A stretch of DNA of 64,000 nt, taken from positions 30,523 through 94,522 of the forward strand of contig JBBAPO010000001.1 in the NCBI GenBank assembly GCA_040400795.1, given 5' to 3'. The translations under genes were made by a program, and so were the position numbers. The stretch's first letter is position 1. Each line of letters opens with the position of its first letter. The notes under the pieces are model-generated. The model saw only the letters and a list, made by a program, of their open reading frames with translations. It was not told the DNA's origin and ran no database searches. Of the stretch, positions 6,913 through 59,629 are shown in pieces. The DNA is from Rhodoferax sp. (GTDB taxonomy: Bacteria > Pseudomonadota > Gammaproteobacteria > Burkholderiales > Burkholderiaceae_C).

Positions 6913-7701
6913 TTGAGACACATCATCGACCTGGACCGTTACCCCCTGGACCGTGAGGGCAGCCAAGCCTGGCACGACATGGTGGCGGCTGCACAGGCTG
7001 CGTTGCAGCAGGGTGGCATGTTCAGCCTTGAGGGGTTTTTGCGACCCGGTGTGGCGGCCAAGGCGGCGGCTGAAATTGCGCCAGTGATGGCCAGCGATTC
7101 TTACCTGCACCAGCGTCGCCACAACATCTATTTCAAGCCCGAAATCCCCGGCCTCGCGGCCGACCACCCGGCGCTGCGCCAGGTGCAGACGACCAACCAC
7201 ACGGTGTGCGCCGACCAAATGCCCGGCAGCCTGGTAATGGCCGTGTACGAATACCCCCCGCTGGCGCAGTTCTTGGCGGCCACCATGGGTCGGCCGGCTT
7301 TGTATGTGATGCCGGACCCGCTGGCCTGTGCCAACGTCATCGCCTACCGTGCCGGGGAAGCGCTGAATTGGCATTTCGACCGGTCCGAGTTCACCACCAC
7401 ACTGCTGCTGCAAGCGCCCGAGGAGGGTGGTGACTTTGAGTACCGAACCAACCTGCGCACTGACACAGACCCCAACTATGAAGGTGTCGCCAAACTGCTG
7501 GAAGGCCGCGACCCCGAGGCTCGCTTGCTGCATCTGCAAGCAGGTACCTTGAATGTGTTCCGTGGCAAAAATACCGCCCACCGGGTAACACCGGTGCAAG
7601 GCGCCGTAGACCGGATGATTGCCGTGCTGTGCTACTACGAGACGCCGGGCGTGATGTTCAGCCCGGAGGAGCGCTTGGGGTTTTACGGTCGCGCTGGCTG
7701 A
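6913..7701 (+). CDS. 2OG-Fe(II)-oxygenase-like protein (HxD type)
   Basis: TTG start. NWHFDRSEF supplies a possible HxD iron-binding facial triad, followed by a distal NTAHRVTP. This family call is tentative. Confidence 0.6.
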   Translation: MRHIIDLDRYPLDREGSQAWHDMVAAAQAALQQGGMFSLEGFLRPGVAAKAAAEIAPVMASDSYLHQRRHNIYFKPEIPGLAADHPALRQVQTTNHTVCADQMPGSLVMAVYEYPPLAQFLAATMGRPALYVMPDPLACANVIAYRAGEALNWHFDRSEFTTTLLLQAPEEGGDFEYRTNLRTDTDPNYEGVAKLLEGRDPEARLLHLQAGTLNVFRGKNTAHRVTPVQGAVDRMIAVLCYYETPGVMFSPEERLGFYGRAG

Positions 7702-8557
7702 GTGGGTTAAAGCCGGTCACCATCATGGTGGCCAGTAACACCAGCGCGCCGCCGGCGTAAGAGGCGAGGGTGAACACCTCGCCCAAAAACAGATGCCCCC
7801 AGACCACGCCAAAAATGGTCACCATGAAGGTGGAGCTGTGGGCCGCCACTGCGCTGACATGTTGCACGATGCGCATGTATTGCCAATAGGCCAAGCCAGA
7901 GGTAATGATGCCCATCAGCGCCACTGCTGAAAGGGCAGACCATGAAAATTGGGCCTGGGGTAGTTTCCAAAGGGCACCGGGCAGCAGCAGCAAAAAACCG
8001 AAGGCGTGGATGCCGGCCGTGATGCTCAAGGGCGGCATGCGTTGGATAGCCCTTTTGAGCAGGGGCATACTGAATCCGGTGAAAAAGCAGGCGCCCACCG
8101 CCAGGGCCGTACCGGCCAAGACCTCGGGCGAGGGGTCAATGGGCCCCAGTCTGACCACCAGTGCCACACCGGTAAAGGCGAGCAGGCAGCCCACCAGCTT
8201 GGTCCAGGTCAGCGTGTCTTCTTTCATCCAGGCAGAGGCAAAGGCCCCAAACAGCACAGACGTGACGGCCACCACAGCGCTGTACCCCGATGGCAAATAA
8301 AGCGATGACCAGGCACTCAGAAAATGCGGCAATGCAATGGCTGCGGCGCCAAGCAGCAACAGTTCTCGCCAGTGTTGCCACGGCCAGTCCAGCTTCTGGT
8401 GCCGCATGATCATGGCCAGCGTGATGGCGCCCAGCCCGATACGCGCGGCTGCGGCAACGCTGGGCCCCAGCACTGGGGTGGCTATCCGGGTCAGTAAAAA
8501 GCCGGTGCCCCACAGCGCCGACAAGGCGACCAGCTGGAAGAAGTACCGACTCTTCAC
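7658..8557 (-). CDS. DMT/EamA-family transporter
   Basis: 299 aa with 10 hydrophobic segments and two EamA-like halves. Its 3' end overlaps the convergent gene by 44 bp. Confidence 0.8.
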   Translation of the reverse strand: MKSRYFFQLVALSALWGTGFLLTRIATPVLGPSVAAAARIGLGAITLAMIMRHQKLDWPWQHWRELLLLGAAAIALPHFLSAWSSLYLPSGYSAVVAVTSVLFGAFASAWMKEDTLTWTKLVGCLLAFTGVALVVRLGPIDPSPEVLAGTALAVGACFFTGFSMPLLKRAIQRMPPLSITAGIHAFGFLLLLPGALWKLPQAQFSWSALSAVALMGIITSGLAYWQYMRIVQHVSAVAAHSSTFMVTIFGVVWGHLFLGEVFTLASYAGGALVLLATMMVTGFNPLSQRDRKTPSAPPG

Positions 8558-8568
8558 GGGGCGGGTTT

Positions 8569-9459
8569 TTAGAGCGCGTTAGGCTCCGGCGGGGACGCGG
8601 CGGCTAGCTCCGCGGTGGCTTGGCGCACGGCGGCTTTGTCGCCTGCGCCGGCAAACTTGCTGTACTTGCCTAGCAGGGCGACCAGTTGACCGTAGATGCG
8701 CGGTGTGCCGGCGAGACATTCTTTTTGCTCCAAAAAGTCTGCCTCGCCGGTGAAATTGCCAACCAAACCACCGGCCTCGGTCACCAACAGCGAACCGGCC
8801 GCGACATCCCAGGGCTGCAGCCCGGTCTCAAAAAAGCCATCGGTAAAGCCGGCGGCTACGTAGGCCAGATCCAGTGCCGCAGCACCGGGGCGTCGCAGCC
8901 CGGCGGTGCGCTGCATCACGTCGCCCATCATGCGCAGGTAGGTGTTGAAGTCATCGCCCTGACGAAACGGAAAGCCGGTGGAGATCAGGCATTCCTGCAA
9001 GCGCACACGCTTTGACACGCGAAGCCGTCGGTCGTTCAAAAAAGCGCCGCGGCCTCGCGTGGCGGTGAACAGATCGTTGCGGGTGGGGTCGTAAATCACC
9101 GCTTGTTCCACTTTGCCTTTGACCGCCAACGCGATGCTGACGCAGTAGACCGGCAGGCCGTGGATGAAATTGGTGGTGCCGTCCAGCGGATCGATGATCC
9201 ACACATAGTCTGAATCCTGAGCGCCATGGGTCCGGCCAGATTCTTCCGCCCAGATGCCATGCCCGGGGTAGGCCGCCAACAGGGTTTCGATGATGGCAAC
9301 CTCGGCGGCCTGATCGACTTCGGTAACAAAGTCATTCACCTGCTTTTGCGAGACACGGACCGACTCCACATCAAGTGCCGCTCGGTTGATGATCGCGCCG
9401 GCCGCGCGGGCTGCCTTGACGGCCACATTGATCATGGGATGCAGATTGGGGGATGACAT
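8569..9459 (-). CDS. suhB: Inositol monophosphatase family protein
   Basis: Has the motifs [12 protein letters not shown] and AAGS. I preferred the ATG at 9459 ([18 protein letters not shown]). Confidence 0.9.
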
Positions 9460-9597
9460 GACTTCTGAATTGTGTGGGCCACTGGCAGGTTCTGCAGTGG
9501 CCGCTGGGGTAAGAACAGGGCAGGGCAACCCGGCGATGCGGGCAGCGACAATGGCTTGATTTTAACCGGCGCTAGGCCTGTGCTTGCCGCTGCAGCC

Positions 9598-10368
9598 ATG
9601 CAGACACGTTTCATTCTGATCAACACCAGCCACGCAGGCAACGTGGGCGCCGCCGCGCGCGCCATGAAAACCATGGGCTTTGACGATTTGGTGCTGGTTG
9701 CGCCGCGCTGGCCCAACGTCTTGCGGCGCGAAGAAACCATTCAGCGGGCCAGCGGTGCGCTGGATGTGCTCAGTAGCGCACGCATCGTCGCCACCCTGGA
9801 TGAGGCGCTGGATGGCATGACCCACCTGTGCGCCACCGCCATGACACCACGCGATTTCGGGCCGCCGACGGTTGCGCCTCGCGAGCATTTCGAGTCGCTA
9901 TTAAAAAAGGAGCTAGAACCCCAATCAGGACAAGGGCTAGAGCCCGAAATCGCTCAAAATTCTGGCGTGGCTTTTCTGTTTGGCTCGGAGCGCTTTGGCA
10001 TGCTCAATGAGCATGTGTACCGATGCCACGCCTGCCTGAGCATCCCAAGCAACCCGCAGTTTGGCTCGCTCAACCTGGGTGCAGCCTTGCAGGTGATTGC
10101 CTATGAGTGGCGCTTGGCGCTGGGTGCTTACCCGGTTCAGTCGGCCACGCCGGCGCCTGCTTTGGCTGATGCCAGCCAGGTGGCAGGCATGCTGGCGCAC
10201 TGGGAGCAGGCACTCACCGCGATCGGCTTTCTTGACCCGCAAGCGCCGCGCAAGCTGATGCCCAGGCTGAACCAACTGTTCAACCGGGCCACGCTGACTC
10301 AGGAAGAAATCCACATCCTGCGCGGGATTGCCAAGCTGATGACCAAGGGTTCCGGCCCTGACCGCTAA
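9598..10368 (+). CDS. trmJ: SpoU/TrmH-class tRNA (cytidine/uridine-2'-O)-methyltransferase TrmJ
   Basis: Begins MQTRFILINTSHAGNVGAAARAMKTMGF and contains LFGSERFGM..SLNLG. Internal ATG at 9598. Confidence 0.85.
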   Translation: MQTRFILINTSHAGNVGAAARAMKTMGFDDLVLVAPRWPNVLRREETIQRASGALDVLSSARIVATLDEALDGMTHLCATAMTPRDFGPPTVAPREHFESLLKKELEPQSGQGLEPEIAQNSGVAFLFGSERFGMLNEHVYRCHACLSIPSNPQFGSLNLGAALQVIAYEWRLALGAYPVQSATPAPALADASQVAGMLAHWEQALTAIGFLDPQAPRKLMPRLNQLFNRATLTQEEIHILRGIAKLMTKGSGPDR

Positions 10369-10378
10369 ACTGCACCTC

Positions 10379-11149
10379 ATGTTGTCTCGTCTTCGTTCCG
10401 ATATTCAGTGCATTCTTGACCGTGACCCAGCGGCGCGCAGCACCTGGGAGGTCATCACCTGCTACCCCGGCCTGCACGCGCTGATCTTGCACCGGCGGGC
10501 CCATTGGTGCTGGCAGCATGGCCTCAAGTGGCTGGGGCGGTTTATTTCGCACATTGCCCGTTTTCTGACCGGGATTGAAATCCACCCTGGGGCGCGTATC
10601 GGCGAGCGGGTGTTTTTTGACCATGCCATGGGCGTGGTGGTAGGTGAGACGGCTGAAATTGGTGACGGCTGCACCATCTACCAGGGCGTGACACTGGGTG
10701 GTACGGCCCTGTACAAGGGTGCCAAGCGCCACCCTACGTTGGGGCGCAATGTGGTGGTCGGCGCGGGTGCCCAGGTGTTGGGCGGCTTCACGGTGGGCGA
10801 TGGTGCCAAGGTCGGCTCGAATGCGGTGGTGACCAAGCCGGTGCCAGCCGGCGCTACGGCAGTGGGCAACCCGGCCCGCATCATTCAGGCGGATCTGGAT
10901 GTCAAACGCGAGGAGGTGGCGTCCAAAATGGGGTTTTCAGCCTATGGCGTGACCCAAAACGATGACCCGCTGAGCCAGGCCCTGAGAGGTCTGATTGACA
11001 ACGCGTCCGGCCAGGATCACCAAATTGCGCTGCTGTGGCAGGCGATTGAAACTTTGCAAAAGAGCCAAGCCGCCAATTGCGTGCCGGCAGACGCCGCGCG
11101 CCAAGAGCATTTCGAGGCCGACCGGCTTAACGAATTGGTGGGTCGGTAG
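10379..11149 (+). CDS. cysE: Serine O-acetyltransferase
   Basis: Contains ILDRDPAA and hexapeptide repeats (GIEIHPGARIG, VVVGETAEIG). Confidence 0.9.
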   Translation: MLSRLRSDIQCILDRDPAARSTWEVITCYPGLHALILHRRAHWCWQHGLKWLGRFISHIARFLTGIEIHPGARIGERVFFDHAMGVVVGETAEIGDGCTIYQGVTLGGTALYKGAKRHPTLGRNVVVGAGAQVLGGFTVGDGAKVGSNAVVTKPVPAGATAVGNPARIIQADLDVKREEVASKMGFSAYGVTQNDDPLSQALRGLIDNASGQDHQIALLWQAIETLQKSQAANCVPADAARQEHFEADRLNELVGR

Positions 11150-11162
11150 GCGCCTGCGCCGT

Positions 11163-11798
11163 TCAGGCCGCAGCCGCCGTGCGCTGGGCTGACTTCGGCC
11201 GAAAAGCCTTGCAAACCGTGTCCACCGTTTCCAGGTAGGGGCCGCCAATCAAGTCCACACAGTAGGGTACGGCGGCAAAGATGCCCGGCAGCACACTGGC
11301 GCCCTCGGCGTCACGCAGGCCTTCCAGGGTCTCGCGAATCGACTTTGGCTGCCCCGGCAGGTTGATGATCAATGTTTGCCCTCGAATGACCGCCACTTGG
11401 CGTGACAGGATGGCTGTCGGCACAAATTTCAGGCTGATCTGGCGCATTTGCTCGCCAAACCCGGGCATGTCCTTGTCCGCCACGGCCAAGGTGGCCTCGG
11501 GTGTCACGTCACGCTTGGCGGGGCCAGTGCCGCCAGTGGTGAGCACCAAGGCGCAGCCGGCGTTGACCAGTTCAATCAGCGTGGCGCTGATCAGGGCTTG
11601 CTCGTCGGGGATCAGCCGGGCCTCAAAGTCAATCGGGTTCTTCAGGGCACGCGTCAGCCAGTCTTGCAGCGCGGGCAGGCCCTGGTCGACATAGACGCCG
11701 CTGGACGCGCGGTCGCTGACCGACACGATGCCGATGCGCACAGGGTCATGGGCCGCAGGGGTGCTGGTGCCGGTGCTGGTGTCAGAGGCGGTCATCAT
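11163..11798 (-). CDS. mog: Molybdopterin adenylyltransferase
   Basis: MoaB/MogA fold motifs LVLTTGGTGPAKRDVTPEA and INLPGQPKS. Confidence 0.85.
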   Translation of the reverse strand: MMTASDTSTGTSTPAAHDPVRIGIVSVSDRASSGVYVDQGLPALQDWLTRALKNPIDFEARLIPDEQALISATLIELVNAGCALVLTTGGTGPAKRDVTPEATLAVADKDMPGFGEQMRQISLKFVPTAILSRQVAVIRGQTLIINLPGQPKSIRETLEGLRDAEGASVLPGIFAAVPYCVDLIGGPYLETVDTVCKAFRPKSAQRTAAAA

Positions 11799-46250: not shown

Positions 46251-47357
46251 CTAGAGTTGCAAGCGGCCGGTGTAGCCTGTCATTTCGAGGTAGCCCCGGC
46301 CTACTGTGCGGCCGTTGCTGTCAATCAGCTCGCTCAGGCCTTCCCAGTAGACCGTGCCGGTGGAGGCTCGGCTGTCCAGCTCCTGATTGTCAACGATCGC
46401 CCGAACGGTGTAGATGTCGGCTGGCGTGCGCACCAGCCATTCGACAGGGTAGCGGGCCCCGGTCAGGGGGCTGACCCAGTACCGCACCGGCCGGAAAACC
46501 ACCTCGCCCGGGCTGAACACATGGGGCAGTTTGTCCAACCCCATGGCGGGGTGGCGAAAGGATCCGCCGTCCCACAGCGCAGCGCCCGCCTTGGTGCGCA
46601 GCTGAAAGGCGGTTAGCGCGCTGCCGTCTGCCAGGTTCATGCCGATCCAGTCCCAGCCGACCGCCTGCGGGTGCAGCAGCTCGTCGCTCCACTCATGGTC
46701 CAGCCAGGCCTTGCCTTGCACGGCCAGCGCCTTGCCACTGACTGCCTTGCCGCCCAGGCGCAGCGTGCCGCTGGTGCGCAGCTGCGGCAGGCTGTAGTAG
46801 TAGCTGGCCTGCTTGGGCTCGGGCCCCTTGCGCGACAGGCCGCGGTCGCCTTGCAACAGCAGCGGCTGGGTCTCGGTCAGCGTCAGCGTGAAATCAAAAC
46901 CAGCCCCGGCCGCCTGCGCCAGGTAAGTGTTGCCATCGCGCCGCAGCGACCAGTCGCGCAGGCGCACATCGGTGTCGGTCTCGCTGGCCTTGGCCACGCC
47001 AAAGCCGGCGCGCGCCAGGCGCTGGTCGTGCCACAGCTTCTTGCCCGCCACATCGGTGACGGCAGCGTGGGCAAACAGCAGTTGTTTGGCGGCAAAGGCG
47101 GAGGTCATGCCCTGGGTGGCCGCCACCCGACTGCGAAAAAATGTGAGCTGAAAACCAAAACTCTGCGCCGGCGTCTCGCCTGTCAGGCTGCCAGTGATGT
47201 ACCACCACTCGGTGCGCATGTCCGGGTGGCTGCCCAGGTCACGCGGAAACTGCAGCCGCTGCGGCGTCAGTGCGCCGGCACCTGTGGGCAAGAGCGGCAG
47301 TGCCAGGGCGGCCGCAAGCAAGCGGCGGCGTGGCAGGCCGGGCATGGGGAGTACCAT
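46251..47357 (-). CDS. AttH/CrtC-like lipocalin-domain protein (secreted)
   Basis: RRRLL signal region, then FPRDLGSHPDMRTEWWYITG, which is typical of AttH-like proteins. The start is uncertain (47345, 47357 or 47381). Confidence 0.7.
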   Translation of the reverse strand: MVLPMPGLPRRRLLAAALALPLLPTGAGALTPQRLQFPRDLGSHPDMRTEWWYITGSLTGETPAQSFGFQLTFFRSRVAATQGMTSAFAAKQLLFAHAAVTDVAGKKLWHDQRLARAGFGVAKASETDTDVRLRDWSLRRDGNTYLAQAAGAGFDFTLTLTETQPLLLQGDRGLSRKGPEPKQASYYYSLPQLRTSGTLRLGGKAVSGKALAVQGKAWLDHEWSDELLHPQAVGWDWIGMNLADGSALTAFQLRTKAGAALWDGGSFRHPAMGLDKLPHVFSPGEVVFRPVRYWVSPLTGARYPVEWLVRTPADIYTVRAIVDNQELDSRASTGTVYWEGLSELIDSNGRTVGRGYLEMTGYTGRLQL

Positions 47358-47469
47358 GGCAGGACGGGTTGACAAAGGCATGCTGATGATTGTGGCCCCA
47401 TCCGGTGCCCGCATGCTAAATTCAGCGCAAAAGGAGGGCTGGCAACGGGCCCATAACAAGACAAACCGC

Positions 47470-49626
47470 ATGACCGCCAACGCATTTCACAACATCGCCC
47501 AAGTCGAAGCCAGCCTGTGGGAGGCTGCCGACCTGCTCCGCGCCAACTCCAACCTGCCCAGCAGCGAGTACTGCATGCCTGTGCTGGGCGTCATCTTTTT
47601 GCGCCATGCCACCAACCGCTACCAAACGGCACTGCAAACCATAGAAGCAGAACAAGCGGCAGGCACCATGCCAAAGCGCCCGCTGGGCAAAGCTGATTTC
47701 ATCAAGCGCCGCGCCCTCATGTTGCCCACAGCAGCGCGGTATGACACGCTGCTGAATCTGCCATCGGGTTCAAACTTGGGCAGCGCGCTGGTGGCCGCCA
47801 TGAACGCGATCGAGGCAGACTTTCCCCCGTTGCAAGGCAGCCTGCCCAAAGACTACGACCGCTTCGACAACAAGCTGCTTGAAGACCTGTTGCGCTGCTT
47901 TGACAGCCAAGCCCTGCGCACTGCCACCGGTGATGTGTTTGGCCGCATTTACGAATACTTCCTGATGAAGTTCGCCATGCAGGGTGCACAAGACAATGGC
48001 GAGTTCTTCACGCCGCCCTCACTGGTGCAAACCTTGGTCAATGTGATTGAACCGACCCATGGGGTGGTGACCGATCTGGCATGCGGGTCGGGCGGCATGT
48101 TTGTGCAAAGCAGCCACTTCATTGAGCAGTCCGGCCAGGACACCATGAAGCGTGTCACCTTCTACGGCCAAGAGAAGACCCGCGCCACCATCCCATTCGC
48201 CAAGATGAACCTGGCCGTGCATGGCTTGGAGGGCGACATTTTGGAGGCCAATACCTTCTACGACGATCCGCATCGCCTGCAAGATGGCCGTCCACTCTGG
48301 GGCAATGTCGACTTCATGATGGCTAACCCGCCGTTCAATGTGGACACCGTGGATGCCGACAAAGTAAAGGGTGACCGGCGCCTGCCCTTTGGTCTGCCCG
48401 GCGTCAACAAAGACAAACACGTCTCCAACGGCAACTACCTGTGGATCTCGTACTTTCACAGCTACCTGTCTCCCACCGGGCGCGCGGGCTTTGTCATGTC
48501 GTCCCAGGCCAGCAGCGCCGGCCATGGCGAGAAAGAAGTGCGGCGCAAACTGGTAGAGACGGGCGATGTAGACGTGATGGTCGCCATCCGCGCCAATTTT
48601 TTCTACACCCGCACCGTTCCCTGCGAGCTGTGGCACTTTGACAAGGCCAAGCCAGTAGCGCGCCAGGACCAGGTGCTGATGCTGGACGCCCGCAACGTGT
48701 ACCGCAAAGTCACCCGCAAGGTTTACGACTTTTCACCCGAGCAGCAAGCCAACCTGGCCGCTGTGGTGTGGCTGTACCGGGGCCAGCAAGAGCGCTTTTT
48801 GGGGCTGGTGCAAGGCTACATCACCCGCCTGGGCATCGCCGCGGCTGCCGTGGAGGGCACGCTGAGGGCATTTGAGTCAGTCCTGACGGCCTGCCGCGAA
48901 CCGGTGGCAGCCTTTTTGCAAAACCTGCGTAACATCGAAGCGCTGCCCCCAGCCCCGCGCCAACCCGCTGAGGATGCGCTTACCGAGTGGGTGGAGGCCA
49001 CCCGCAGCTACGCCAGCGACCGCGCCGCCTTGGTCACCGGCTTAGCCGTGTTTTGCAAGTCGGCGGCCAAGCCAGTGCACACCAACCAAGCCCAACACGC
49101 CGCCCGCCAAGCCTTTGACCCCCTGGCCGAATCGGCCCGGGGTCTGGTCAAACAGATTGACCTGCTCTACAAACTGGCCGCCCGCGCCGCCCAACTGGCG
49201 AATGAACTGGCGCAAGCATTGGGGCAGGATCTGGCAGCACGCGCCGAGGCCACTGAGTTTTATGACCGCCGGGCCGTGGGCAGGGCCATCAAGCAGCTAG
49301 ACGAAGACCGCCAAGCCGCCGTCGAACAGCTCAAAGGCTGCGCCTACCTGCACCGCCAGGTGGCCTGGCTGCAAGACCGCTTTCCCCAGGCTGCCATGGT
49401 GGACGTGCCCGGCCTGTGCAAGGTGGTCACCCGCGCCGACATTGAAGCCGCCGACTGGAGCCTGACCCCCGGCCGCTTTGTGGGCGTGGCCCCGGCCGAG
49501 GTGGACGCGGACTTCGACTTCGAACAAACCCTGCGCGACATCCACCTGGAGTTGGCGGACTTGAACCGCGAGGCTGTGGACTTGGCCGCCAGGATTCAGA
49601 CCAACTTTGAGGCGTTGGGGGTATGA
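47470..49626 (+). CDS. hsdM: Type I restriction-modification system, methyltransferase subunit M (long form, 718 aa)
   Basis: HsdM N-domain (LWEAADLLRANSNLPSSEY, VLGVIFLR), AdoMet site (DLACGSGGMF), catalytic NPPF (MMANPPFN), and C-terminal DWSLTPGRFVG. The track ORF from 47194 is an upstream extension overlapping the divergent gene. Confidence 0.92.
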   Translation: MTANAFHNIAQVEASLWEAADLLRANSNLPSSEYCMPVLGVIFLRHATNRYQTALQTIEAEQAAGTMPKRPLGKADFIKRRALMLPTAARYDTLLNLPSGSNLGSALVAAMNAIEADFPPLQGSLPKDYDRFDNKLLEDLLRCFDSQALRTATGDVFGRIYEYFLMKFAMQGAQDNGEFFTPPSLVQTLVNVIEPTHGVVTDLACGSGGMFVQSSHFIEQSGQDTMKRVTFYGQEKTRATIPFAKMNLAVHGLEGDILEANTFYDDPHRLQDGRPLWGNVDFMMANPPFNVDTVDADKVKGDRRLPFGLPGVNKDKHVSNGNYLWISYFHSYLSPTGRAGFVMSSQASSAGHGEKEVRRKLVETGDVDVMVAIRANFFYTRTVPCELWHFDKAKPVARQDQVLMLDARNVYRKVTRKVYDFSPEQQANLAAVVWLYRGQQERFLGLVQGYITRLGIAAAAVEGTLRAFESVLTACREPVAAFLQNLRNIEALPPAPRQPAEDALTEWVEATRSYASDRAALVTGLAVFCKSAAKPVHTNQAQHAARQAFDPLAESARGLVKQIDLLYKLAARAAQLANELAQALGQDLAARAEATEFYDRRAVGRAIKQLDEDRQAAVEQLKGCAYLHRQVAWLQDRFPQAAMVDVPGLCKVVTRADIEAADWSLTPGRFVGVAPAEVDADFDFEQTLRDIHLELADLNREAVDLAARIQTNFEALGV

Positions 49627-49693: not shown

Positions 49694-50889
49694 ATGATAA
49701 TTGGTCTGCAAAGCATGAACTGGCCACAAGTTAGATTTGAGGACGTTGCATTGCCAGTAAAGGGTTCGATTGTCTCTGGCCCATTCGGATCAAACATCGG
49801 AAGTCGGTTTTTTGTTGATGATGGTGTCCCGGTAATTCGTGGAAACAATCTGACTTTTGGACATAGACGCTTTGTTGACGATGGCTTTGTGTTCCTGACT
49901 GATGAAAAGGCGGAGGAATTCAAGAATTGCCAAGCCATCGAGGGCGATTTGGTTTTTACGCGGCTGGAACCATCGGTCAGGTTGGGATTATTCCTGCTGG
50001 GACCCGCTTTGATCGGTACATCATTTCAAATAAGCAGCTTCGTGTCAGGAGCGACAAAAGCAAAGTCAATCCGCTATTCCTCTTCCTTTGGTTTACCACG
50101 CCAGGAATGAGACAGCACATCATCAACAAGAACAGCGGGAGCACGATCCCACTGATCAATTTGGGAATTTTGCGTGGCTTACCAGTGCCATTGCCGCCGC
50201 TTGAGATACAAAACAGGATCGTCGACTACCTCTCAACCTACGACGACCTCATCGAAAACAACCGCCGCCGCATGGCCCTGCTCGAAGAGTCCGCCCGGCT
50301 GCTCTACCGCGAATGGTTCGTCCGGCTGCGCTTCCCCGGCTATGAACACACCCCTGTTGTGGATGGCGTGCCAAAGGGGTGGACGCAGGCACCGCTGGAG
50401 TCTGCTTTGGTTTTACAACGTGGCTTCGATCTACCAACGCAAGACCGGCAAGAAGGCGGCGTCCCGATCTACGGCTCGACCGGCATCCTGGGTTACCACG
50501 ACAAAGCCAAAGCGGTAGCACCTGGGGTGGTGACTGGCCGAAGCGGCACTTTGGGCGAAGTGCAATACGTTGCAGAGGATTACTGGCCGCTCAATACCGC
50601 GCTTTGGGTCAAGGAGTTCAAGCGAGTGACACCATTATTTGCACTACACCTGCTGAGAGAGATGGACTTGAAGCAATTCAACGGCGGGTCATCCGTACCT
50701 ACGCTTGATCGCAAGTCCGTACACCGGGTTGAAATCCTGATTCCGCCCGCGCCAATACTTCGGTCATTTGATGAATTTGCGTCGACGGTCTTTCTGCAGA
50801 TGGAGAGCTTGCGCACGCAAAACCAAAAACTCCGTACCGCCCGCGACCTGTTGCTGCCGCGTTTAATGACTGGGAAAATCCAAGTATGA
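49694..50889 (+). pseudogene. hsdS: Type I R-M specificity subunit S, interrupted by a 1-nt frameshift near 49963
   Basis: ORF 49694-50110 reads ..EGDLVFTR and then runs into nonsense. ORF 49927-50889 reads AGTIGQVGIIP..YIISNKQL.. in the -1 frame. Joined at 49963 they give a normal two-TRD HsdS with the central conserved repeat IVDYLSTYDDLIENNRRRMALLEE and the distal repeat LRTQNQKLRTARDLLLPRLMTG. Confidence 0.85.
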
Positions 50890-52649
50890 AAATTAAGTCT
50901 TTTGAATTTACCTATATCAAGGCTTTCAAGTCCCTCAAATTCGACTTGGAAAGAACCTCGGTCCTTGTTGGTCAGAATGATCATGGAAAGTCGTCAATTC
51001 TCAAAGCCATTGACATTGTTCTGAATCAGCTAGATGAAGATGCGCTCAATCGTGGGGCCTTACACCCAGATTTAGCCGAGCGACTACTGCCACTTTTCCC
51101 GGTCAATTCCAAAGCCCGTCGGATCACAATCAAATATTCTTCAAAAGGAGTTGACAAGGTCTTGCACATCACGGTTCGTACAGACCTGACTTTTACGGTT
51201 CTCGAAACCATTGAACGAAGTGCAAAAACGACCCCAGCGGCAATTGCCGTTTTGAAACAACTTCGTGAGCACAACAGATTTGTCTTGATCCCTGCGATGC
51301 GTGACGCAACTTCGCCAGCCTTTCAGGATTTGTTTTCCCGGATGCTCCGAGTTCATGGTCTCGCAAAGATCATCCCGGAAAAAGCCGGCGGTACACCAAA
51401 GGAATACCGTAAGCTGAAGGAAATTAGGGACAGTATCTCAACCACAATCAAACCATTCATAAACGCCGCGCTGTTGCCGAAAATTGAGGAGCAGTTCGGA
51501 TACAAGACGCAACATAAACTGGCTCTGAAGTTTGATGTTGACGTGCAGGATATTGGTGAATGGATACTTGATAACCTGAGTTTGGGATTTGAAATGCCAG
51601 GCGATAGTGATGCGACATTGGCACTTTCTGAAGCGGGTTCCGGTGTTCAAAGTGGCGTGCTTTTGGCCCTTCATCGGGTTGAACAGCAAGCCGCAGAAAA
51701 CCCTGGTATTCAATTCATTCTGGCAGTTGAAGAGCCAGAAGCATTTCTACATCCACAAAAGCAAAAGGAACTTTATCAAGGCATACGTGCTGCTGCGTCA
51801 GCGAATTTACGGGTGATCGTCACCACCCACAGTCCCTACATCATTGCAGAGACTCCTTTTACCCGGCTGGGCCTTGTAAAAAAAGACGGGCAGCACTCAG
51901 CACTGCATGTGGCGGAGGTGAATAGCCAGGGTGAGCAGGAAACATTTGACGCTTACAGTGATGAGGTAAATTCATCCCTATTCTTCGCTGACAAAGTCAT
52001 ACTTGTAGAGGGTGAATCAGACTCAAGAGTGGTCAAACTACTGCTTGAAAAGAAGTTCGGTGCGCACGCTCACCGAATATCGGTGTTGTCTGCGTCTGGC
52101 AATAAAAATTCCTCACCTTTTTTGCGAATGATTCGAGCTTGGAGCTCTGCAAAAATTCCTCACTTGGTCGTGACTGATTTTGACTCGTTGACAAAGCCTT
52201 CAAATCGTGCTGTTTTGAAGGGTGCCAAAGACGCCGGTTACACACCAATTGGCGAGGCTGGTTTTCTGTCAAAAGTAGATGCGGCCCTTGATAAGGGTGA
52301 GCCAGAATATGCCGGGGCCGCAATCGATGCTACAGCCTTTTTCAGCACGGCCGGCCTAAACGTTTTTGTGTTCTCATCTGATTTGGAGTATTCCCTTCTA
52401 ACCACAGTAAACAAGGCAGCTGTTTCAACAGTCCTAACCAGCTTGTCTACCACGGGAAATGACTTTTCTAACGGATACAGCCTCGATGACTTGCGTCGTC
52501 AAATTGGCAGCAAAGGATTGCCGATAAGACCGAATGACGATGCCACCTTCAAGAAGCCGTTTGTTCATCGAAAAATTGCAGACACCATCGCACTGGGAGA
52601 CCCGCACCCAGACATTGCTCGATTGATTGCCGCGATTGATGCGCTGTAA
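50886..52649 (+). CDS. OLD-family nuclease: N-terminal ABC-type ATPase fused to a C-terminal Toprim domain (587 aa)
   Basis: Walker A GQNDHGKSS (aa 29-37), signature-like LSEAGSGVQS, Walker B FILAVEEPEAFLHP, and H-loop VTTHSP. Toprim motifs VILVEGESD and LVVTDFDS follow. The ATG overlaps the hsdS stop (ATGA). Confidence 0.85.
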   Translation: MKIKSFEFTYIKAFKSLKFDLERTSVLVGQNDHGKSSILKAIDIVLNQLDEDALNRGALHPDLAERLLPLFPVNSKARRITIKYSSKGVDKVLHITVRTDLTFTVLETIERSAKTTPAAIAVLKQLREHNRFVLIPAMRDATSPAFQDLFSRMLRVHGLAKIIPEKAGGTPKEYRKLKEIRDSISTTIKPFINAALLPKIEEQFGYKTQHKLALKFDVDVQDIGEWILDNLSLGFEMPGDSDATLALSEAGSGVQSGVLLALHRVEQQAAENPGIQFILAVEEPEAFLHPQKQKELYQGIRAAASANLRVIVTTHSPYIIAETPFTRLGLVKKDGQHSALHVAEVNSQGEQETFDAYSDEVNSSLFFADKVILVEGESDSRVVKLLLEKKFGAHAHRISVLSASGNKNSSPFLRMIRAWSSAKIPHLVVTDFDSLTKPSNRAVLKGAKDAGYTPIGEAGFLSKVDAALDKGEPEYAGAAIDATAFFSTAGLNVFVFSSDLEYSLLTTVNKAAVSTVLTSLSTTGNDFSNGYSLDDLRRQIGSKGLPIRPNDDATFKKPFVHRKIADTIALGDPHPDIARLIAAIDAL

Positions 52650-54302
52650 TTGTCAATAGGCCTCTTTATGTCCCTCGAAGGCCACCACACCGACCTCAAG
52701 TCTCTGCGCACCGTCACCGGCAAGTCGGCGGACTGGGAGGCGTTGGCCAAAGATTGCGTGTGCTTTGCCAATGGCGGGGGTGGCCGCTTGTTGATTGGCA
52801 TCGAAGATGGACAAACCTTGCCGCCTGCCGGCCAAGTGGTGCCGTCAGAGCTGCTTGACCGGTTGCGCAAGCGCATGGGCGAGTTGACGGTGAATGTGCA
52901 GGCATTGCCCAGCGTGCAGCTGGCGGCCAATGGCGGTGAGTTCATCGAGCTTGTGATTGACCGAGCCCCCAGCGTGGCATCTACCAAAGATGGCCGCTAT
53001 TTCCTGCGCGTGGGTGACACCTGCCAGCCGGTGCTGGGCGACGACGTACTGCGCCTCGCCAATGAGCGGCCGGGCAGGCCGTGGGAGGCGATGGACAGCG
53101 GCGTGTCGCGTGGCGCTGCTGCCGCCGACAAGCTGGCCGCTTTTGTTAAAGGTATTGCGGCATCGGGCCGGGTCAAAGAGTCTGTCAAGGAAAAAGGTGC
53201 GGATGCGCTGCTGACCCATTACGGGTTGGCCCAAGGCGCAACGCTGACCCGCCTGGGTGCGCTGCTGCTGGGCACTGCCGCCGACCGCCGCGCCTTGGGC
53301 ACTGCGCCGCTGGTGCAGGCCATCAAGTACGACGAGCAGGGTCAGAAAATCAACAAATGGGTGTGGGACGACTGCGAGCTATCCCCCGTGGAGCTGGTAG
53401 ATGCCGTGTGGCGCGAGGTACCCGATTTTCGCGAGAGCTACGAGGTGGCCGAAGGCCTCTACCGCCGTAGCGTGCCCGCCTACGACGAAAAGGTGGTGCG
53501 CGAGTTGCTGGTCAACGCGCTGGTGCACCGGCCTTACACGCAACAGGGCGACATTTACCTCAATCTGCACCCCGAGCGGCTGGAGGTGGTCAACCCCGGC
53601 CGCTTGCCGCTGGGGGTAACCCCGCGCAACATGCTGCATGCCAGCCGCCGGCGCAACGAAGGGCTAGCGCGGGTGTTTCACGACCTGGGCCTGATGGAGC
53701 GTGAGGGCAGCGGTTTTGACTTGATCTATGACCGGCTGCTGTCCCAAGGCCGCCCGGCACCCGTGCCCGAAGAGGGCGTGGATTGGGTCAAGGTGACGAT
53801 TCAACGGCGCATTGCCAAGCCTGACGTGATGCGGCTGCTTGCCGAGGCCGATGCCCGCTATCAGCTCACCCAGCGCGAGCGCATTACCTTGGGTGTGTTG
53901 GCACAGGCCGAGGGCATGACTGCCCGCGAACTGAGCGCCGTGCTGGAGGCGGAAGGCGGAGATGATTTGTCGGTATGGTTCGGGCGCTTGGTTTCTGCCG
54001 GCCTGGTCCATACCACGGGCAAGACTTCGGGCATGCGCTACTTTGTGGCACCGGATTGGTTACGTGGTGCGCAGCTCGACCGCAAAACCACGCTAACCCG
54101 CATCACACCGCACCGCCTGCATGCCTTGATTTTGGAAGACCTGGCGCGGTACCCCGAATCGTCCAGTGCTGACATTAACCGGCGCATTGGGGTGGAGATA
54201 TCGGCAAAAACGGTCAAGCGGGCTTTGGATCATTTGTTGGGCACCAATGAGGTGGTTTATTCAGGCGAGCGGCGCTGGCGGCGTTACCGATTGGGTGCGT
54301 AA
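52650..54302 (+). CDS. AlbA_2 (Schlafen-like) + HATPase_c_4 ('RecG-like C-terminal') + C-terminal wHTH protein
   Basis: N-terminal E..H.DLK...LAKDCVCFANGGGGRLLIGIED (AlbA_2 pattern). Central VRELLVNALVHRPY..NPG (HATPase_c_4 pattern). The C-terminus is helix-turn-helix-like. The TTG at 52650 abuts the upstream TAA; an alternative ATG lies at 52668. Confidence 0.8.
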   Translation: MSIGLFMSLEGHHTDLKSLRTVTGKSADWEALAKDCVCFANGGGGRLLIGIEDGQTLPPAGQVVPSELLDRLRKRMGELTVNVQALPSVQLAANGGEFIELVIDRAPSVASTKDGRYFLRVGDTCQPVLGDDVLRLANERPGRPWEAMDSGVSRGAAAADKLAAFVKGIAASGRVKESVKEKGADALLTHYGLAQGATLTRLGALLLGTAADRRALGTAPLVQAIKYDEQGQKINKWVWDDCELSPVELVDAVWREVPDFRESYEVAEGLYRRSVPAYDEKVVRELLVNALVHRPYTQQGDIYLNLHPERLEVVNPGRLPLGVTPRNMLHASRRRNEGLARVFHDLGLMEREGSGFDLIYDRLLSQGRPAPVPEEGVDWVKVTIQRRIAKPDVMRLLAEADARYQLTQRERITLGVLAQAEGMTARELSAVLEAEGGDDLSVWFGRLVSAGLVHTTGKTSGMRYFVAPDWLRGAQLDRKTTLTRITPHRLHALILEDLARYPESSSADINRRIGVEISAKTVKRALDHLLGTNEVVYSGERRWRRYRLGA

Positions 54303-54393
54303 TGTCTAAAGGACAAAAGGGAGGGGTGTTTCATGAAAAATAATGGCTTTAAGCCCCGCATGCGTTCCAAGTGGTTGATTTGTAATGGTTTTT

Positions 54394-54424
54394 ATAAAGG
54401 ACAGTCGTTGACGCTGTCCTTTAT
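54394..54424 (+). promoter_or_regulatory. Perfect 11-bp-stem hairpin (ATAAAGGACAG-N9-CTGTCCTTTAT) in the AT-rich spacer before hsdR
   Basis: Read directly from the sequence. It is followed by only a short T-tract, so its function (attenuator, operator or processing site) is unknown. Confidence 0.3.
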
Positions 54425-54451
54425 GACCGATGGCTCTGTCCGATAGAACCC

Positions 54452-57400
54452 ATGGCCTACACCGACATCAACAGCGAAGACCGATTGGTGCAGGCCACCT
54501 TTGCCGAGCATCTGGCGCATTCGCTGGGCTGGGACAGCGTGTATGCCTGGAACCAGGAAACCTTTGGCCCCAATGGCACGCTGGGCCGCGCCAGCGAGCG
54601 TGACGCGGTGCTGGTGCGCGACTTGCGCAGCGCATTGGTCCGGCTCAACCCGCAGCTGCCCGCCCCCGCCATTGAAGAGGCCATCACCAAGTTGACGCAC
54701 CACGAGTTTTCTCGTTCGCTGTTGCAGCACAACCAGGCGTTTCATGCGCTGATCCGCGACGGTGTGCCGGTGAGCTACCGCAACGCACAGGGGCAGCTCA
54801 GCCACGCACAGGCGGCGGTGATCGACTTTCGCAACCCGGTCAATAACCGGTTTCTGGTGGTGCGCGAGCTCAAGCTCACCGGCCTGCGCACGCCCAACTA
54901 CAACCGCCGGGCCGATCTGGTGTGTTTTGTGAACGGCTTGCCGCTGGTCTTTGTTGAGCTCAAAGCGGTTTACAAAAACATCCGTGCTGGCTTTGACGGC
55001 AACCTGCGCGACTACATGGACGAGAACGTGGTGGCCCATGCCTTTCACCACAACGCGTTTTTGGTTGTCAGCAACGGGCACAACGCCCGCTTTGGCTCCA
55101 TCACCAGCAGCTGGGCGCATTTTGGTGAGTGGAAGCGCCTGCACGAGCAGGATGTGGGCAACGTGGCCGCAGAGGTGTTGCTCAACGGCATGCTGGCCAA
55201 AGACCGCTTGCTTGACCTGGTAGAAAACTTCATTTTGTTTGACGCCAGCAAGGCCGGTGCCGTGCGCAAGGTGGTGGCCCGTAACCACCAGATGCTGGGT
55301 GTGAACCAGGCCGTGGCCGCCGTGGTGAGGCAGGAAGCACTGAAGCGTGAGTTCCCGACCGACAAACGCCTGACCCACCGCACCATTGCGCTGCCCTCTG
55401 CGGACAGAGATTACGCGGCCAATGATGCCTTGGTGGTTTACCCGATGGCTGCTCAGCCTGTGCCCGAGTACCTGCAAATCATCGAACGTGCGCACCCTGA
55501 TCTGGGCCGCTTGGGGGTGGTGTGGCACACGCAGGGCAGCGGCAAGTCGTATTCGATGGCCTTCTTTGCCGAGAAGGTGCGCCGCACGGTGCCGGGCAAT
55601 TTCACCTTTGTGCTGATGACGGACCGGGACGACCTGGACAGCCAGATTTACAAGACCTTTGTAGGCTGCGGGGTGGCCGATGGCACAACCCCGCGCGCAA
55701 GCTCAGGGCGCGAATTGCAGCGCCTGCTGTCTGAAAATCACCGTTTTGTGTTCAGCCTGATTCACAAGTTCAACCAGGAGGTATCGCCCGATGCGCCGTA
55801 CAGCAAGCGCGACGACATTATTGTGGTGTCTGATGAGGCTCACCGCACCCAATCGGGCAAGCTGGCGCGCAACATGCGCATGGCGCTGCCCAATGCGGCC
55901 TTTATTGGCTTTACCGGCACGCCGCTGTTCAAGCACGACCAGCTGACCAAGCGCATCTTTGGCGACTACGTGTCGCGCTACGACTTCAAGCGCAGCGAAG
56001 AAGATGGCGCCACCGTGAAGCTGGTGTACGAAAACCGGGGCGAGAAGTTGGGCCTGGCCAAGTTGGACCTGAACGATCGCATCGCGGCCGCTGTGGACGC
56101 TGCCGACCTGGACCCGGACCAAACGGCTTTGCTGGAAAAGCTGCTGGGCAAGGATTACGAGGTGATCACGGCTGACGAGCGCTTGGACCGCGTGGCCAGT
56201 GACTTTGTGGACCATTGCAGCACCCGCTGGGAAGCAGGCAAAGCCATGATGGTGTGCATCGACAAAATCACCTGTGCCCGCATGCTCAAGCTGATTGGCC
56301 CCAAGTGGAAGGCCAAGGCCGCCGCCGTGCGCACAGACGCTCAGGCCAAACTGGCTGCTATTGCCGCCGCCGATGATGACGAAACCCGTCAGATACTGCA
56401 TGCGCAGCGCGACCGGCTGGTGGCCAAAGCCGATTGGATGGATGACACCATCATTGAGCTGATCATCAGCGAAGCCCAAAACGAAGTGGCTGACTTCAAA
56501 AAGTGGCAGTTCGACATCATCTCCCACCGTTCGGTGATGAAGCTGGGATTTGAAACGAAAGACGGCCAGCGCGTCGATGTAGAAACCTCGTTCAAAAACC
56601 CCAAGCACCCGTTCCGCATCGCCATCGTGTGCGCCATGTGGCTCACCGGCTTTGATGTCGAATGCCTCGCCACGCTGTACATCGACAAGCCGATGCGGGC
56701 GCATACGCTGATGCAGGCCATTGCCCGTGCCAACCGGGTGTACCCGGGCAAGGATTTTGGGCTGATCGTGGACTACAACGGCATGCTCAAGAGCCTGCGC
56801 GAAGCCCTGGCCCAGTACGCGCTGGGTGACGATGGTGGTGACGCTGAGATCGTGGCTCCGATTGAAGAGCGGGTTGCTGCACTGGCCGATGCCATCACTG
56901 TGACGGAAGCACACCTGCGCGGCCTGGGCTTTGAGGCCAATGCACTGTCAGGTACCAAGGGGTTCACCCGCATTCAGTTGCTGGCCGACGCGGTAGAAGC
57001 GGTTTACACCAGTGAGGAAGCCAAGCGCCGCTATGAAATCTTGTGCCGTGTGGTGTTCGGCCGGTTCAAAGCATTGTTGGTAGAGCCCTCCGCATTGATC
57101 TATGCCGAGCGCCACGACAACCTGGAGGCCATCTACAAGAAGCTGGGCGAGCGACGCGACACGGCCGATGTGAGCGAGCTGCTCAAGCTGCTGCACCGCA
57201 TCGTCAACACGGCCATTGCCTCCCATGGCCCCGGTGGCGACCAGGCCAGCGGGCTGACGGTGGACCTGTCGCAGATCAACATGGAAAAGTTGCGCGATGA
57301 ATTTGCCAAAAAAATCAAACGCAAGGCGACGGTGATTGAGGACATCCGGCAAATTGTGGAAGACAAGCTGGCGCAGATGCTGGGGCGCAACCCACTGCGG

Positions 57401-57547
57401 ATGAACTACGAAAAGCGCTACCAGGAGATCATTGCCGCTTACAACCAGGACAAAGACCGAGCCACCGTGGAGGACACGTTTGCCAAACTCATCGAACTGG
57501 CGAATGCCTTGAGCGCAGAGGAGCGTCGGGCTTTGGATGAGGACTGA
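54452..57547 (+). CDS. hsdR: Type I restriction enzyme subunit R (main ORF; C-terminal domain lost to a frameshift)
   Basis: N-terminal nuclease region (ADLVCFVNGLPLVFVELK), helicase motif I (HTQGSGKS), DEAH box (VVSDEAHRTQ), and motif VI (QAIARANR). Confidence 0.92.
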   Translation: MAYTDINSEDRLVQATFAEHLAHSLGWDSVYAWNQETFGPNGTLGRASERDAVLVRDLRSALVRLNPQLPAPAIEEAITKLTHHEFSRSLLQHNQAFHALIRDGVPVSYRNAQGQLSHAQAAVIDFRNPVNNRFLVVRELKLTGLRTPNYNRRADLVCFVNGLPLVFVELKAVYKNIRAGFDGNLRDYMDENVVAHAFHHNAFLVVSNGHNARFGSITSSWAHFGEWKRLHEQDVGNVAAEVLLNGMLAKDRLLDLVENFILFDASKAGAVRKVVARNHQMLGVNQAVAAVVRQEALKREFPTDKRLTHRTIALPSADRDYAANDALVVYPMAAQPVPEYLQIIERAHPDLGRLGVVWHTQGSGKSYSMAFFAEKVRRTVPGNFTFVLMTDRDDLDSQIYKTFVGCGVADGTTPRASSGRELQRLLSENHRFVFSLIHKFNQEVSPDAPYSKRDDIIVVSDEAHRTQSGKLARNMRMALPNAAFIGFTGTPLFKHDQLTKRIFGDYVSRYDFKRSEEDGATVKLVYENRGEKLGLAKLDLNDRIAAAVDAADLDPDQTALLEKLLGKDYEVITADERLDRVASDFVDHCSTRWEAGKAMMVCIDKITCARMLKLIGPKWKAKAAAVRTDAQAKLAAIAAADDDETRQILHAQRDRLVAKADWMDDTIIELIISEAQNEVADFKKWQFDIISHRSVMKLGFETKDGQRVDVETSFKNPKHPFRIAIVCAMWLTGFDVECLATLYIDKPMRAHTLMQAIARANRVYPGKDFGLIVDYNGMLKSLREALAQYALGDDGGDAEIVAPIEERVAALADAITVTEAHLRGLGFEANALSGTKGFTRIQLLADAVEAVYTSEEAKRRYEILCRVVFGRFKALLVEPSALIYAERHDNLEAIYKKLGERRDTADVSELLKLLHRIVNTAIASHGPGGDQASGLTVDLSQINMEKLRDEFAKKIKRKATVIEDIRQIVEDKLAQMLGRNPLRMNYEKRYQEIIAAYNQDKDRATVEDTFAKLIELANALSAEERRALDED

Positions 57548-57846
57548 GCGAAGAGCAGCTGGCCTTGTTTGACCTGGTGCAGCGTGATGATTTGACCCGC
57601 GCTGACCGTGAACGCATCAAGCAGGCCAGCCGCGAGCTGTTGGCCGGTGTGCTGGCGCTGATCGCGCCGCTGGACCGCTGGACAGAAAAGGAACAGACCC
57701 AGGCCGAGGTGGAGACCTTCATCCTGGACCAGGTGTACCAAACCCTGCCGGAGCCGCCCTACACCCCGGACGACAAGGCTCGCGTGGCGCAGGAGGTGTA
57801 TCGGCATATCTGGCAGCAGAGCCTGCGGGCGCAGGGGGCAGGCTAG
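57541..57846 (+). pseudogene. hsdR: Displaced C-terminal (DUF3387-like) segment of hsdR in the -1 frame
   Basis: The frame opening at 57541 reads GLSEEQLALFDLVQRDDLTRADRERIKQASRELL..WTEKEQTQAEVETFI. This is the usual HsdR C-terminus and continues directly from ..EERRALDE of the main ORF. Confidence 0.75.
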
Positions 57847-58999: not shown

Positions 59000-59084
59000 T
59001 CGATCGATACGATCCGGCGGTGGATTAATCGTATGATTCAGCGTACTATCAAGCGCATTATTGACCCATCGCCAGGAGTTTGCA

Positions 59085-59339
59085 ATGTCACACATCAGCG
59101 CCAATGACCTAAAGACCAAGGGTATCGCTGCCATTGAGTTGGCCCTGAGCACCGCGCCCGAGGCGATTGTGTCGGTGCGCGGCAAAGACAGGTATGTGGT
59201 GATGGATATGGCGCAGTACCACTACCTGCGCGAATGTGAGCTGGACGCCGCGCTGGCCCAGACTCGTGCCGACCTGGCCGCCGGACGCAGGGTGCAAGAG
59301 TCGCCCGAGGCCCACCTGGCGCGGCTGGACGCGATGTAA
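59085..59339 (+). CDS. Type II antitoxin (Phd/YefM-like)
   Basis: Small acidic protein with AGGAG 7 nt upstream of the ATG. It lies directly upstream of a RelE-like ORF. Confidence 0.7.
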   Translation: MSHISANDLKTKGIAAIELALSTAPEAIVSVRGKDRYVVMDMAQYHYLRECELDAALAQTRADLAAGRRVQESPEAHLARLDAM

Positions 59340-59356
59340 CGCCTCCACCAGTTGCC

Positions 59357-59629
59357 ATGTTTGCGCTGGTTTTCACCGAACAATACAACCGTCGGGCGGC
59401 CCGTTTTCTGAAACGTCACCCTGATCTTCGCCAGCAGTACCTCAAAACCTTGCAAGTCCTGGAAGCCAATCCGGCCCACCCGTCGCTGCGCCTGCACCCC
59501 TTGCGCGGCAAGTTGGACGGTCTGCATTCGGTGTCCATCAACCTGTCGTACCGCATCACGCTGGAGTTGTTGATTCAGGATGGGCAGATCATTCCGGTGA
59601 ATGTTGGCGATCATGACGCGGTGTACTGA
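59357..59629 (+). CDS. RelE/ParE-superfamily toxin
   Basis: 90 aa. HPSLRLHPLRGKLDGLHSVSINLSYRI..VGDHDAVY is typical of RelE/YafQ-like toxins. Confidence 0.8.
   Translation: MFALVFTEQYNRRAARFLKRHPDLRQQYLKTLQVLEANPAHPSLRLHPLRGKLDGLHSVSINLSYRITLELLIQDGQIIPVNVGDHDAVY

Follow-up and report, generated by a model that had tools for sequence, protein, structure and literature searches.

Class 1 members of the OLD family, among them Thermus scotoductus OLD (Ts OLD; PDB 6P74), P2 Old, Vibrio cholerae OLD (Vc OLD) and Escherichia coli YbjD, are single chains of ~530-590 amino acids (aa) with an N-terminal ABC ATPase, a helical insert and, at the C-terminal end, a Toprim domain, and they have neither a helicase nor a reverse transcriptase (RT) as a partner. 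They are the least understood OLD class. A review describes them as single genes away from other defence genes and asks whether they defend alone and how they are triggered (PMC10568477). Nuclease activity has precedent in Ts OLD and P2 Old (PMC7049728), and Vc OLD, a nickase, gives defence by itself (PMC12392090). Here we analysed a 64,000-nucleotide (nt) stretch of a Rhodoferax sp. genome (GenBank assembly GCA_040400795.1, contig JBBAPO010000001.1, positions 30,523 to 94,522 of the forward strand; hereafter the window, to which coordinates refer unless another locus is named). One gene in it, here called OLD, is predicted from its sequence to encode an intact single-polypeptide nuclease of Class 1 type, in which an ABC ATPase with a helical insert is joined to a Toprim domain, and it lies inside a type I restriction-modification (R-M) operon directly after the specificity gene hsdS. 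We read the protein, with a probability of roughly 0.55, as a second, autonomous layer of defence against phages that is inherited and expressed along with the restriction system.

The class of the OLD protein was assigned from the rankings of hidden Markov model (HMM) searches, sequence searches against PDB and fold comparison. Pfam matches were obtained to AAA_15 (5.5e-31), AAA_21 (8.4e-19) and OLD-like_TOPRIM (2.7e-13, aa 366-433), the last at 1e-13 when the C-terminal half was searched alone, and the top PADLOC models were GajA (7e-37), Old and AriA (1.4e-32, ATPase half). Sequence search against PDB placed Ts OLD (6p74) first at 5e-15, with GajA chains at ~8e-6. An AlphaFold2 (AF2) model built with 46 orthologues had a mean predicted local distance difference test (pLDDT) score of 76.6, and most of the ATPase core, of the Toprim domain and of the C-terminal helices reached 90 or more; Foldseek against PDB with this model returned Ts OLD first (2.3e-18), followed by the retron Eco8 effector and GajA, all as full-length alignments. 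An earlier note, made from the sequence alone, had proposed a single-chain OLD nuclease with a C-terminal Toprim domain, and HMM, sequence-to-PDB and fold comparison agree with it: the C-terminal domain matches Toprim by HMM with its catalytic residues all there, and Ts OLD is the best fold match among known OLD structures.

Catalytic residues were mapped from those listed by Schiltz et al. 2020 (PMC7049728) and a HMMER alignment, and the coordinates are collected in Table 1. All six motifs quoted in the earlier note were located. Across the 46-orthologue alignment the mapped ATPase set (K35, E282/E283, H289 and H315) is invariant, and all mapped ATPase and nuclease residues are either invariant or at least 90% conserved. 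The metal-B residues and K510, assigned by pattern and conservation and not by residue-level superposition, have pattern counterparts in P2 Old (D541/E543/K550) and Ts OLD (S478/E480/R487). Taken as sequence evidence, the motif set and the domain matches are far beyond what chance would be expected to give.

Table 1. Coordinates of the OLD gene, its motifs and the surrounding type I operon in the window (ORF, open reading frame).
Feature	Position	Strand	Evidence
OLD-family ATPase-nuclease ORF, 587 aa, intact	50886..52649	+	ORF list, Pfam, PADLOC, PDB, fold
OLD cassette, 1793 bp: last few hsdS codons, OLD gene and 18-nt spacer	50874-52666	+	empty-site comparison
Walker A / P-loop GQNDHGKSS (K35), aa 29-37	50970..50996	+	invariant in 46 orthologues; aligns with Ts OLD P-loop
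Inserted helical region, aa 139-252, probable dimerisation domain	51300..51641	+	AF2 model, Ts OLD, conservation
Signature-like LSEAGSGVQS, aa 247-256	51624..51653	+	aligned to Ts OLD; orthologue conservation
Walker B FILAVEEPE (E282/E283; aa 277-285) and D-loop AFLHPQ (H289)	51714..51758	+	Ts OLD E276, H283
H-loop TTHSP (H315), aa 313-317	51822..51836	+	motif, conservation, Ts OLD comparison
Toprim LVEGESD, aa 373-379: E375 (metal A), D379 (metal B)	52002..52022	+	aligned with Ts OLD E377, D381
Toprim DxD VTDFDS, aa 429-434: D431, D433 (metal A)	52170..52187	+	aligned with Ts OLD D431, D433; invariant
Putative metal-B SSDLE (S498, D499, E501) and K510	52374..52421	+	S498/D499/E501 invariant, K510 near-invariant
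hsdM methyltransferase, likely ATG start (MTANAF...)	47470..49626	+	HsdM_N 2.4e-13, N6_Mtase 3.4e-65
hsdS, frameshifted, ORFs 49694..50110 and 49927..50889	49694..50889	+	Methylase_S 1.9e-21; PADLOC Specificity_I 1.5e-65
AlbA_2 (Schlafen-like) and HATPase_c_4 protein, 544 aa	52668..54302	+	SLFN_AlbA_2 3.8e-10, HATPase_c_4 4.3e-17
hsdR, frameshift ~57540: ORF 54452..57547 and out-of-frame tail 57565..57846	54452..57846	+	Pfam, TIGR00348

The earlier note had also described a long insertion at about aa 40-250 that it could not relate to anything. There is an insert, but its extent was overstated, since residues 1-135 form an ordinary ABC-ATPase lobe and the insert itself covers about aa 139-252 (AF2 helices at 144-155, 171-187, 196-204 and 220-230). 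It does have a counterpart: the ATPase of Ts OLD carries a four-helix dimerisation insert at the same place (PMC7049728), and on the modelled structure aa 139-252 are probably this usual OLD dimerisation insert. The pLDDT of the region is below 50 despite its richness in invariant residues in the orthologue alignment, as would be expected for an interface that becomes ordered only in the oligomer.

With the Class 1 proteins OLD thus has in common the chain length, domain order and lack of a helicase or RT partner given above, as well as the residues at metals A and B, the Walker B glutamate and the D-loop and H-loop histidines. It differs from them in overall sequence, the closest characterised proteins sharing no more than 17-21% identity with it (17% for Ts OLD in the Foldseek alignment; 21% for P2 Old over 34% of the query), in the spacing from the DxD motif to the metal-B site (68 aa here, 47 in Ts OLD, 88 in P2 Old, as counted from residue numbers), and in the signature-like LSxxGxGxQ, which is clear here and degenerate in Ts OLD.

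The other OLD classes and related systems fit less well. GajA of Gabija (Class 2) has the same overall fold, is the top PADLOC match and gives a strong Foldseek match, but its PDB sequence match is far weaker than that of Ts OLD, and no UvrD-like GajB is adjacent: the downstream genes encode the AlbA_2/HATPase_c_4 protein and then HsdR, a superfamily 2 protein with SWI2_SNF2/ResIII and no UvrD domain. As the earlier note had stated, there is no helicase or RT partner; a Pfam scan of the neighbour proteins found no UvrD-type helicase and no RT, the neighbours being hsdS, the AlbA_2/HATPase_c_4 gene, hsdR and then housekeeping genes. Membership of the retrons (Class 3) was rejected because no RT gene is nearby and the NCBIfam model retron_eff_Eco8 scored 67 bits against a cut-off of 250, a test of proteins in which non-coding RNA was not searched. 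PARIS (AriA/AriB, Class 4) likewise combines an AAA_15/21 ABC ATPase with a Toprim nuclease and is functionally linked to anti-restriction, but it is usually a two-gene system with a DUF4435 Toprim found at P4 satellite hotspots, whereas OLD is one gene with an OLD-like_TOPRIM domain in an hsd operon; the C-terminal half of OLD gave no match to DUF4435/AriB at E<=1 and no PrrC domain was found. MADS membership was rejected on NCBIfam scores far below the cut-offs (MAD3 45 bits against 420, MAD2 32 against 720, MAD5 43 against 400).

More than 120 orthologues of 587-588 aa share 66-91% identity with OLD and come from metagenome-assembled genomes (MAGs) of, among others, Proteobacteria, Verrucomicrobiota, Acidobacteriota and Gemmatimonadota; identity at this level over 587 aa across many phyla indicates purifying selection on the clade. 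Exact-sequence look-up in public assemblies returned no record for the OLD protein or for P0124. A tblastn search of plasmids and phages found only distant OLD relatives, with partial matches of at most 32% identity; on this search the clade is not evidently carried by plasmids or phages.

The start of OLD is joined to the end of hsdS. The hsdS stop TGA (50887-50889) overlaps the OLD ATG (50886-50888) as ATGA (context ...CAAGTATGAAAATT...), and a Shine-Dalgarno-like GGGA/GGGGAG (GGGA in the window; a reading of the sequence) lies within conserved ...GE(I/L)... codons at the hsdS end. Of the coupling to hsdS claimed in the earlier note, the overlap is therefore confirmed and the translational coupling itself is inferred from it. 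Comparison by blastn with the collinear operon of Rhodoferax sp. L060 revealed an empty site: window positions 50292-50873 correspond to L060 1-582 (83% identity) and 52667-54600 to L060 594-2529 (85%), with 1793 bp in the window in place of 11 bp. At the empty site it is the AlbA_2 gene whose ATG overlaps the hsdS stop (...GCGGTATGAGCCTC...); OLD in the window occupies this former hsdS-adjacent place, and the AlbA_2 gene begins 18 nt past the OLD stop. OLD arrived as a discrete 1.8-kb cassette at the hsdS 3' end within the cargo slot between hsdS and hsdR. Its GC content is 0.47 (0.46 at third codon positions) against ~0.60 (~0.77) in the neighbouring genes, and in all 24 of the 24 loci compared it lies below the rest of its own locus, by 2.6 to 20 points. 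The deficit points to horizontal spread, which is typical for defence genes.

To place the clade, loci were analysed by tblastn with the window proteins; the sample comprised 12 loci from exact-protein look-ups and a first pattern scan, 17 further genome loci and 27 metagenome loci, and the clade was taken as relatives at >=58% identity, plus L026 at 50%. In ~24 of ~36 clade loci OLD stands directly after hsdS, in the order hsdM-hsdS-OLD-(0-3 kb cargo)-hsdR (L001, L003-L008, L011, L014, L016, L018, L026, L027, L032, L035, L036, L038, L040-L043, L048 and L053). The ATGA overlap was present in 18 of 22 such embedded loci. The single-gene nature of Class 1 holds throughout, as the 22 embedded loci show hsdS upstream and hsdR or variable cargo downstream and other copies are solitary; distance from defence genes, the other part of the Class 1 description, does not hold for the ~24 loci inside type I R-M operons. 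Cargo in the interval from OLD to hsdR in these operons included RhuM/Fic, AbiEii, TIR, Nmad3 and DUF3800 genes. The partner HsdR proteins fall into three tiers of identity to that of the window (49-86%, 37-46% and 33-35%) and the OLD proteins remain at 61-80% throughout, with a mean of 70.5% where HsdR is below 38% (120 locus pairs compared). The operons that host the clade thus belong to three or more divergent type I families, and the cassette has therefore moved between unrelated families and each time entered the same junction.

In the remaining ~11-13 loci OLD is solitary and lies among housekeeping genes, for instance glmS/glmU or genes for a sulfate permease or a beta-lactamase-fold protein, and most of these copies are a full-length match or an intact ORF. 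In L002, L034, L020, L049 and L022 an hsdS tail remnant (e.g. ...LMNGEIQV*) was found just upstream of the solitary OLD, so that those copies descend from embedded ones. The description of the gene as stand-alone in the earlier note accordingly needs division: there is no partner and solitary copies exist, but the clade is found mostly in the type I hsdS-hsdR slot. Among more distant relatives, one at 47% identity lies among hypothetical genes with a second AAA_15/AAA_21 ATPase, and one at 29% adjoins a type II R-M pair. A Leptospira alstonii contig (L025) carries two relatives at 40-41% (22-1794 and 10420-11778), ~8.6 kb apart, with no hsd gene detected on it. In L006, which comes from a Sulfotelmatobacter MAG, hsdS and OLD are separated by three ORFs (7166-9902), the two that were scanned encoding AlbA_2-domain and TIR-domain proteins; L006 and L007 are the only embedded loci that have no long upstream ORF ending at the OLD start.

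The position after hsdS, in ~24 of 36 loci and at least three hsd families, with ATGA in 18 of 22, also suits a different function, in which OLD would be made in step with HsdS, stay latent and fire when the R-M complex is inhibited, much as PrrC or PARIS do. The trigger would be an Ocr/ArdA-type DNA mimic, an Stp-type peptide or direct sensing of the mimic, and the Toprim domain would then cut DNA or tRNA and abort the infection. We regard such a guard as the main rival reading, possible and rather unlikely. It has precedents: prrC occupies the same position in the hsd locus of EcoprrI and is activated by T4 Stp (PMC12707154; PMC9122126), and PARIS, of the OLD family, degrades tRNA when triggered by the anti-restriction protein Ocr (PMC9122126; PMC10802454). 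MADS, for its part, joins an AAA15/21 ATPase and a Toprim domain with a type-I-like methylase and S subunit. The conserved insert at aa 139-252, which remained unmodelled as a monomer, would fit a protein-protein interface as well. PrrC of the type IC system EcoprrI resembles OLD in being an accessory ABC-type ATPase-nuclease gene beside hsdS in an hsd operon and in being optional within its hsd family; it differs in having another nuclease domain, with no Toprim, in not belonging to the OLD family, and in that its dependence on R-M was shown experimentally. OLD itself has neither the AriB (DUF4435) nor the PrrC domain, which speaks against a guard of either kind, and PARIS is itself independent of the type I system (PMC9122126).

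Relatives of the window's own hsd operon bear on the same question. A reverse scan with the window HsdR collected 80 species-level loci (64-97% HsdR identity), and OLD of the clade was found in 0 of these 80 closest hsd operons, which rules it out as a core subunit of this hsd family. Both junctions of the interval were visible in 63 loci: hsdR followed hsdS directly in 13, an AlbA_2 gene stood directly after hsdS in 23, and 27 had other cargo, including GmrSD, a HipA-like kinase, a DEAD helicase with a DprA-like protein, and a PIN protein. The interval between hsdS and hsdR is a fast-turnover slot for defence and toxin cargo. The AlbA_2 ATG overlaps the hsdS stop as ATGA in 16 relatives that have no OLD, and the ATGA coupling, by which the first gene would be expressed, thus belongs to whichever gene is first in the slot and not to OLD specifically. 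A general cargo hotspot in which OLD is optional, and an overlap that AlbA_2 has equally, both count against a guard of the R-M complex, as do the solitary copies next to housekeeping genes, most of them full-length or intact.

The AlbA_2 gene was rejected as an obligate partner of OLD, since, apart from a remnant in L008, it stands after OLD in just the window, L032 and L004, and is common where OLD is absent; by the same comparison it is the older cargo gene of the slot. Its product gave weak PADLOC matches to argonaute-associated PNTD models. L008 (9783-10247), L009 and L010 contain a 154-aa deletion remnant of the gene, and short remnants of the hsdR 5' end directly follow OLD or cargo in L004 (6522-6584 and 8400-8738) and L036 (8447-8620). 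These remnants look like traces left as cargo was replaced again and again through recombination at the start of hsdR. In L059, the closest relative, the slot holds the candidate system PDC-M07 (PDC-M07A/B by PADLOC), an AAA_21/AAA_15 ATPase with a 169-aa partner. RloB is probably Toprim-like. The rloA/rloB genes of Campylobacter jejuni (PMC2928727) and PDC-M07 resemble OLD as ABC-ATPase-based modules between hsdS and hsdR, and differ from it as two-gene modules with no recognisable OLD Toprim. No published description of an OLD nuclease as hsd-operon cargo was found in the limited collection of literature that was searched.

In the window, hsdM, OLD and the AlbA_2 gene are intact, and hsdS and hsdR are both frameshifted, as the earlier note had stated. 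The two parts of hsdS lie in different frames through a one-base frameshift at a T5 run near 49950 (within 49940-49960), and both halves are in a single frame in L004 and L014. A single-base indel at GAGGACTGAGC (57535-57550) interrupts hsdR, with a stop at 57547 and the last 93 codons (LSEEQLALFDL...) in another frame; relatives read through as a single ORF of 1143-1148 aa, and L008 and L011 keep the tail in frame. Elsewhere in the window the gene map is unbroken and tightly packed, which makes a generally poor assembly unlikely as the cause, and the frameshifts are probably real mutations, though single sequence errors are possible. From its sequence the restriction system here looks recently inactivated.

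Two frameshifted neighbours would also suit a gene that is itself a relic in a dying operon, or that serves DNA repair or maintenance and has no part in defence, and OLD relatives are frameshifted in L020, L023, L007 and L026; an archaeal OLD ATPase is reported to have a cell-cycle role (PMC12796447). We consider either of these improbable. The ORF is full-length, it retains every catalytic residue and is conserved in many phyla as described above; OLD is accompanied by defence and toxin cargo, and its GC deficit suggests the horizontal spread of a defence gene. The intact state of OLD beside broken hsdS and hsdR counts against a guard too, as a nuclease restrained by the R-M complex would be expected to become toxic or be lost.

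The reading that we prefer, autonomous defence from within the operon, would work as follows. OLD would be transcribed together with the hsd genes and translated through coupling to hsdS, and its product would form a homodimer via the insert. The ABC heads, by binding and hydrolysing ATP, would gate the two-metal site of the Toprim domain, which would nick or degrade invading phage DNA, by analogy with Vc OLD, Ts OLD and P2 Old, in a manner mechanistically independent of the restriction enzyme. In the window the hsdS frameshift should halt ribosomes at 50110; the coupling would be weakened by this, and OLD may be poorly expressed here. Autonomy is favoured by the solitary copies with housekeeping neighbours, by the intact OLD beside the broken hsdS and hsdR, and by the lack of OLD in all 80 hsd relatives. 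Three points weigh against the reading as a whole: the low identity to any characterised protein, the low confidence with which the dimerisation region was modelled, and the adjacency to hsdS in about two thirds of loci and in unrelated hsd families, which exceeds what a random hotspot would need, so that a functional link could exist. One such link, which we put forward only tentatively, is that the clade constitutes a distinct OLD class coupled to type I R-M systems, in which OLD would be a fourth component, produced together with HsdS, that guards or cooperates with the restriction enzyme and the solitary copies would be derived escapees. It might, for example, fire on an Ocr/ArdA-type block of the complex, or act on DNA held by a stalled translocating enzyme.

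Several features of the operon and its surroundings complete the description. The PADLOC model MTase_I (4.3e-237) aligned from residue 99 of the hsdM ORF and relatives align from the methionine at 47470. The mechanical ORF begins at 47194, 276 nt upstream, and overlaps the 5' end of a divergent CrtC-like gene (46251..47480, - strand); this extension is probably not translated. HsdR comprises HSDR_N, SWI2_SNF2, ResIII, T1R_D3-like and T1RH-like_C domains (TIGR00348 3.4e-137), and its nearest relatives are found in Comamonadaceae/Rhodoferax-type Betaproteobacteria, at 97% identity in a betaproteobacterial MAG (L059) and 91% in Rhodoferax. Promoter and terminator counts in a scan of 46.8-58.2 kb did not exceed those of shuffled sequence, and the scan was uninformative on operon structure. 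Farther neighbours outside the operon are the CrtC-like protein, an ABC exporter and an OYE-type (old yellow enzyme) oxidoreductase. Just past the hsd island, two small adjacent ORFs of 92 and 90 aa (59061-59629) have weak matches to Phd/YefM antitoxins and ParE/RelE-type toxins and may form a type II toxin-antitoxin pair.

The clade is widespread, highly conserved and as yet uncharacterised. It departs from the textbook description of Class 1 OLD proteins as isolated genes: the place that it favours is the first in the hsdS-hsdR slot, where its start overlaps the hsdS stop. What is new here is this conserved hsd-operon context of an otherwise known kind of enzyme, and a new variant or class would be warranted only if a functional tie to the restriction enzyme were shown. 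The empty-site comparison and the survey of relatives together show rapid turnover of defence cargo inside hsd operons. For defence annotation the context is relevant because the OLD gene would be labelled as an orphan 'GajA-like' match. Intact four-gene operons such as those of L011 and L038 offer a test system for whether OLD backs up or guards type I restriction.

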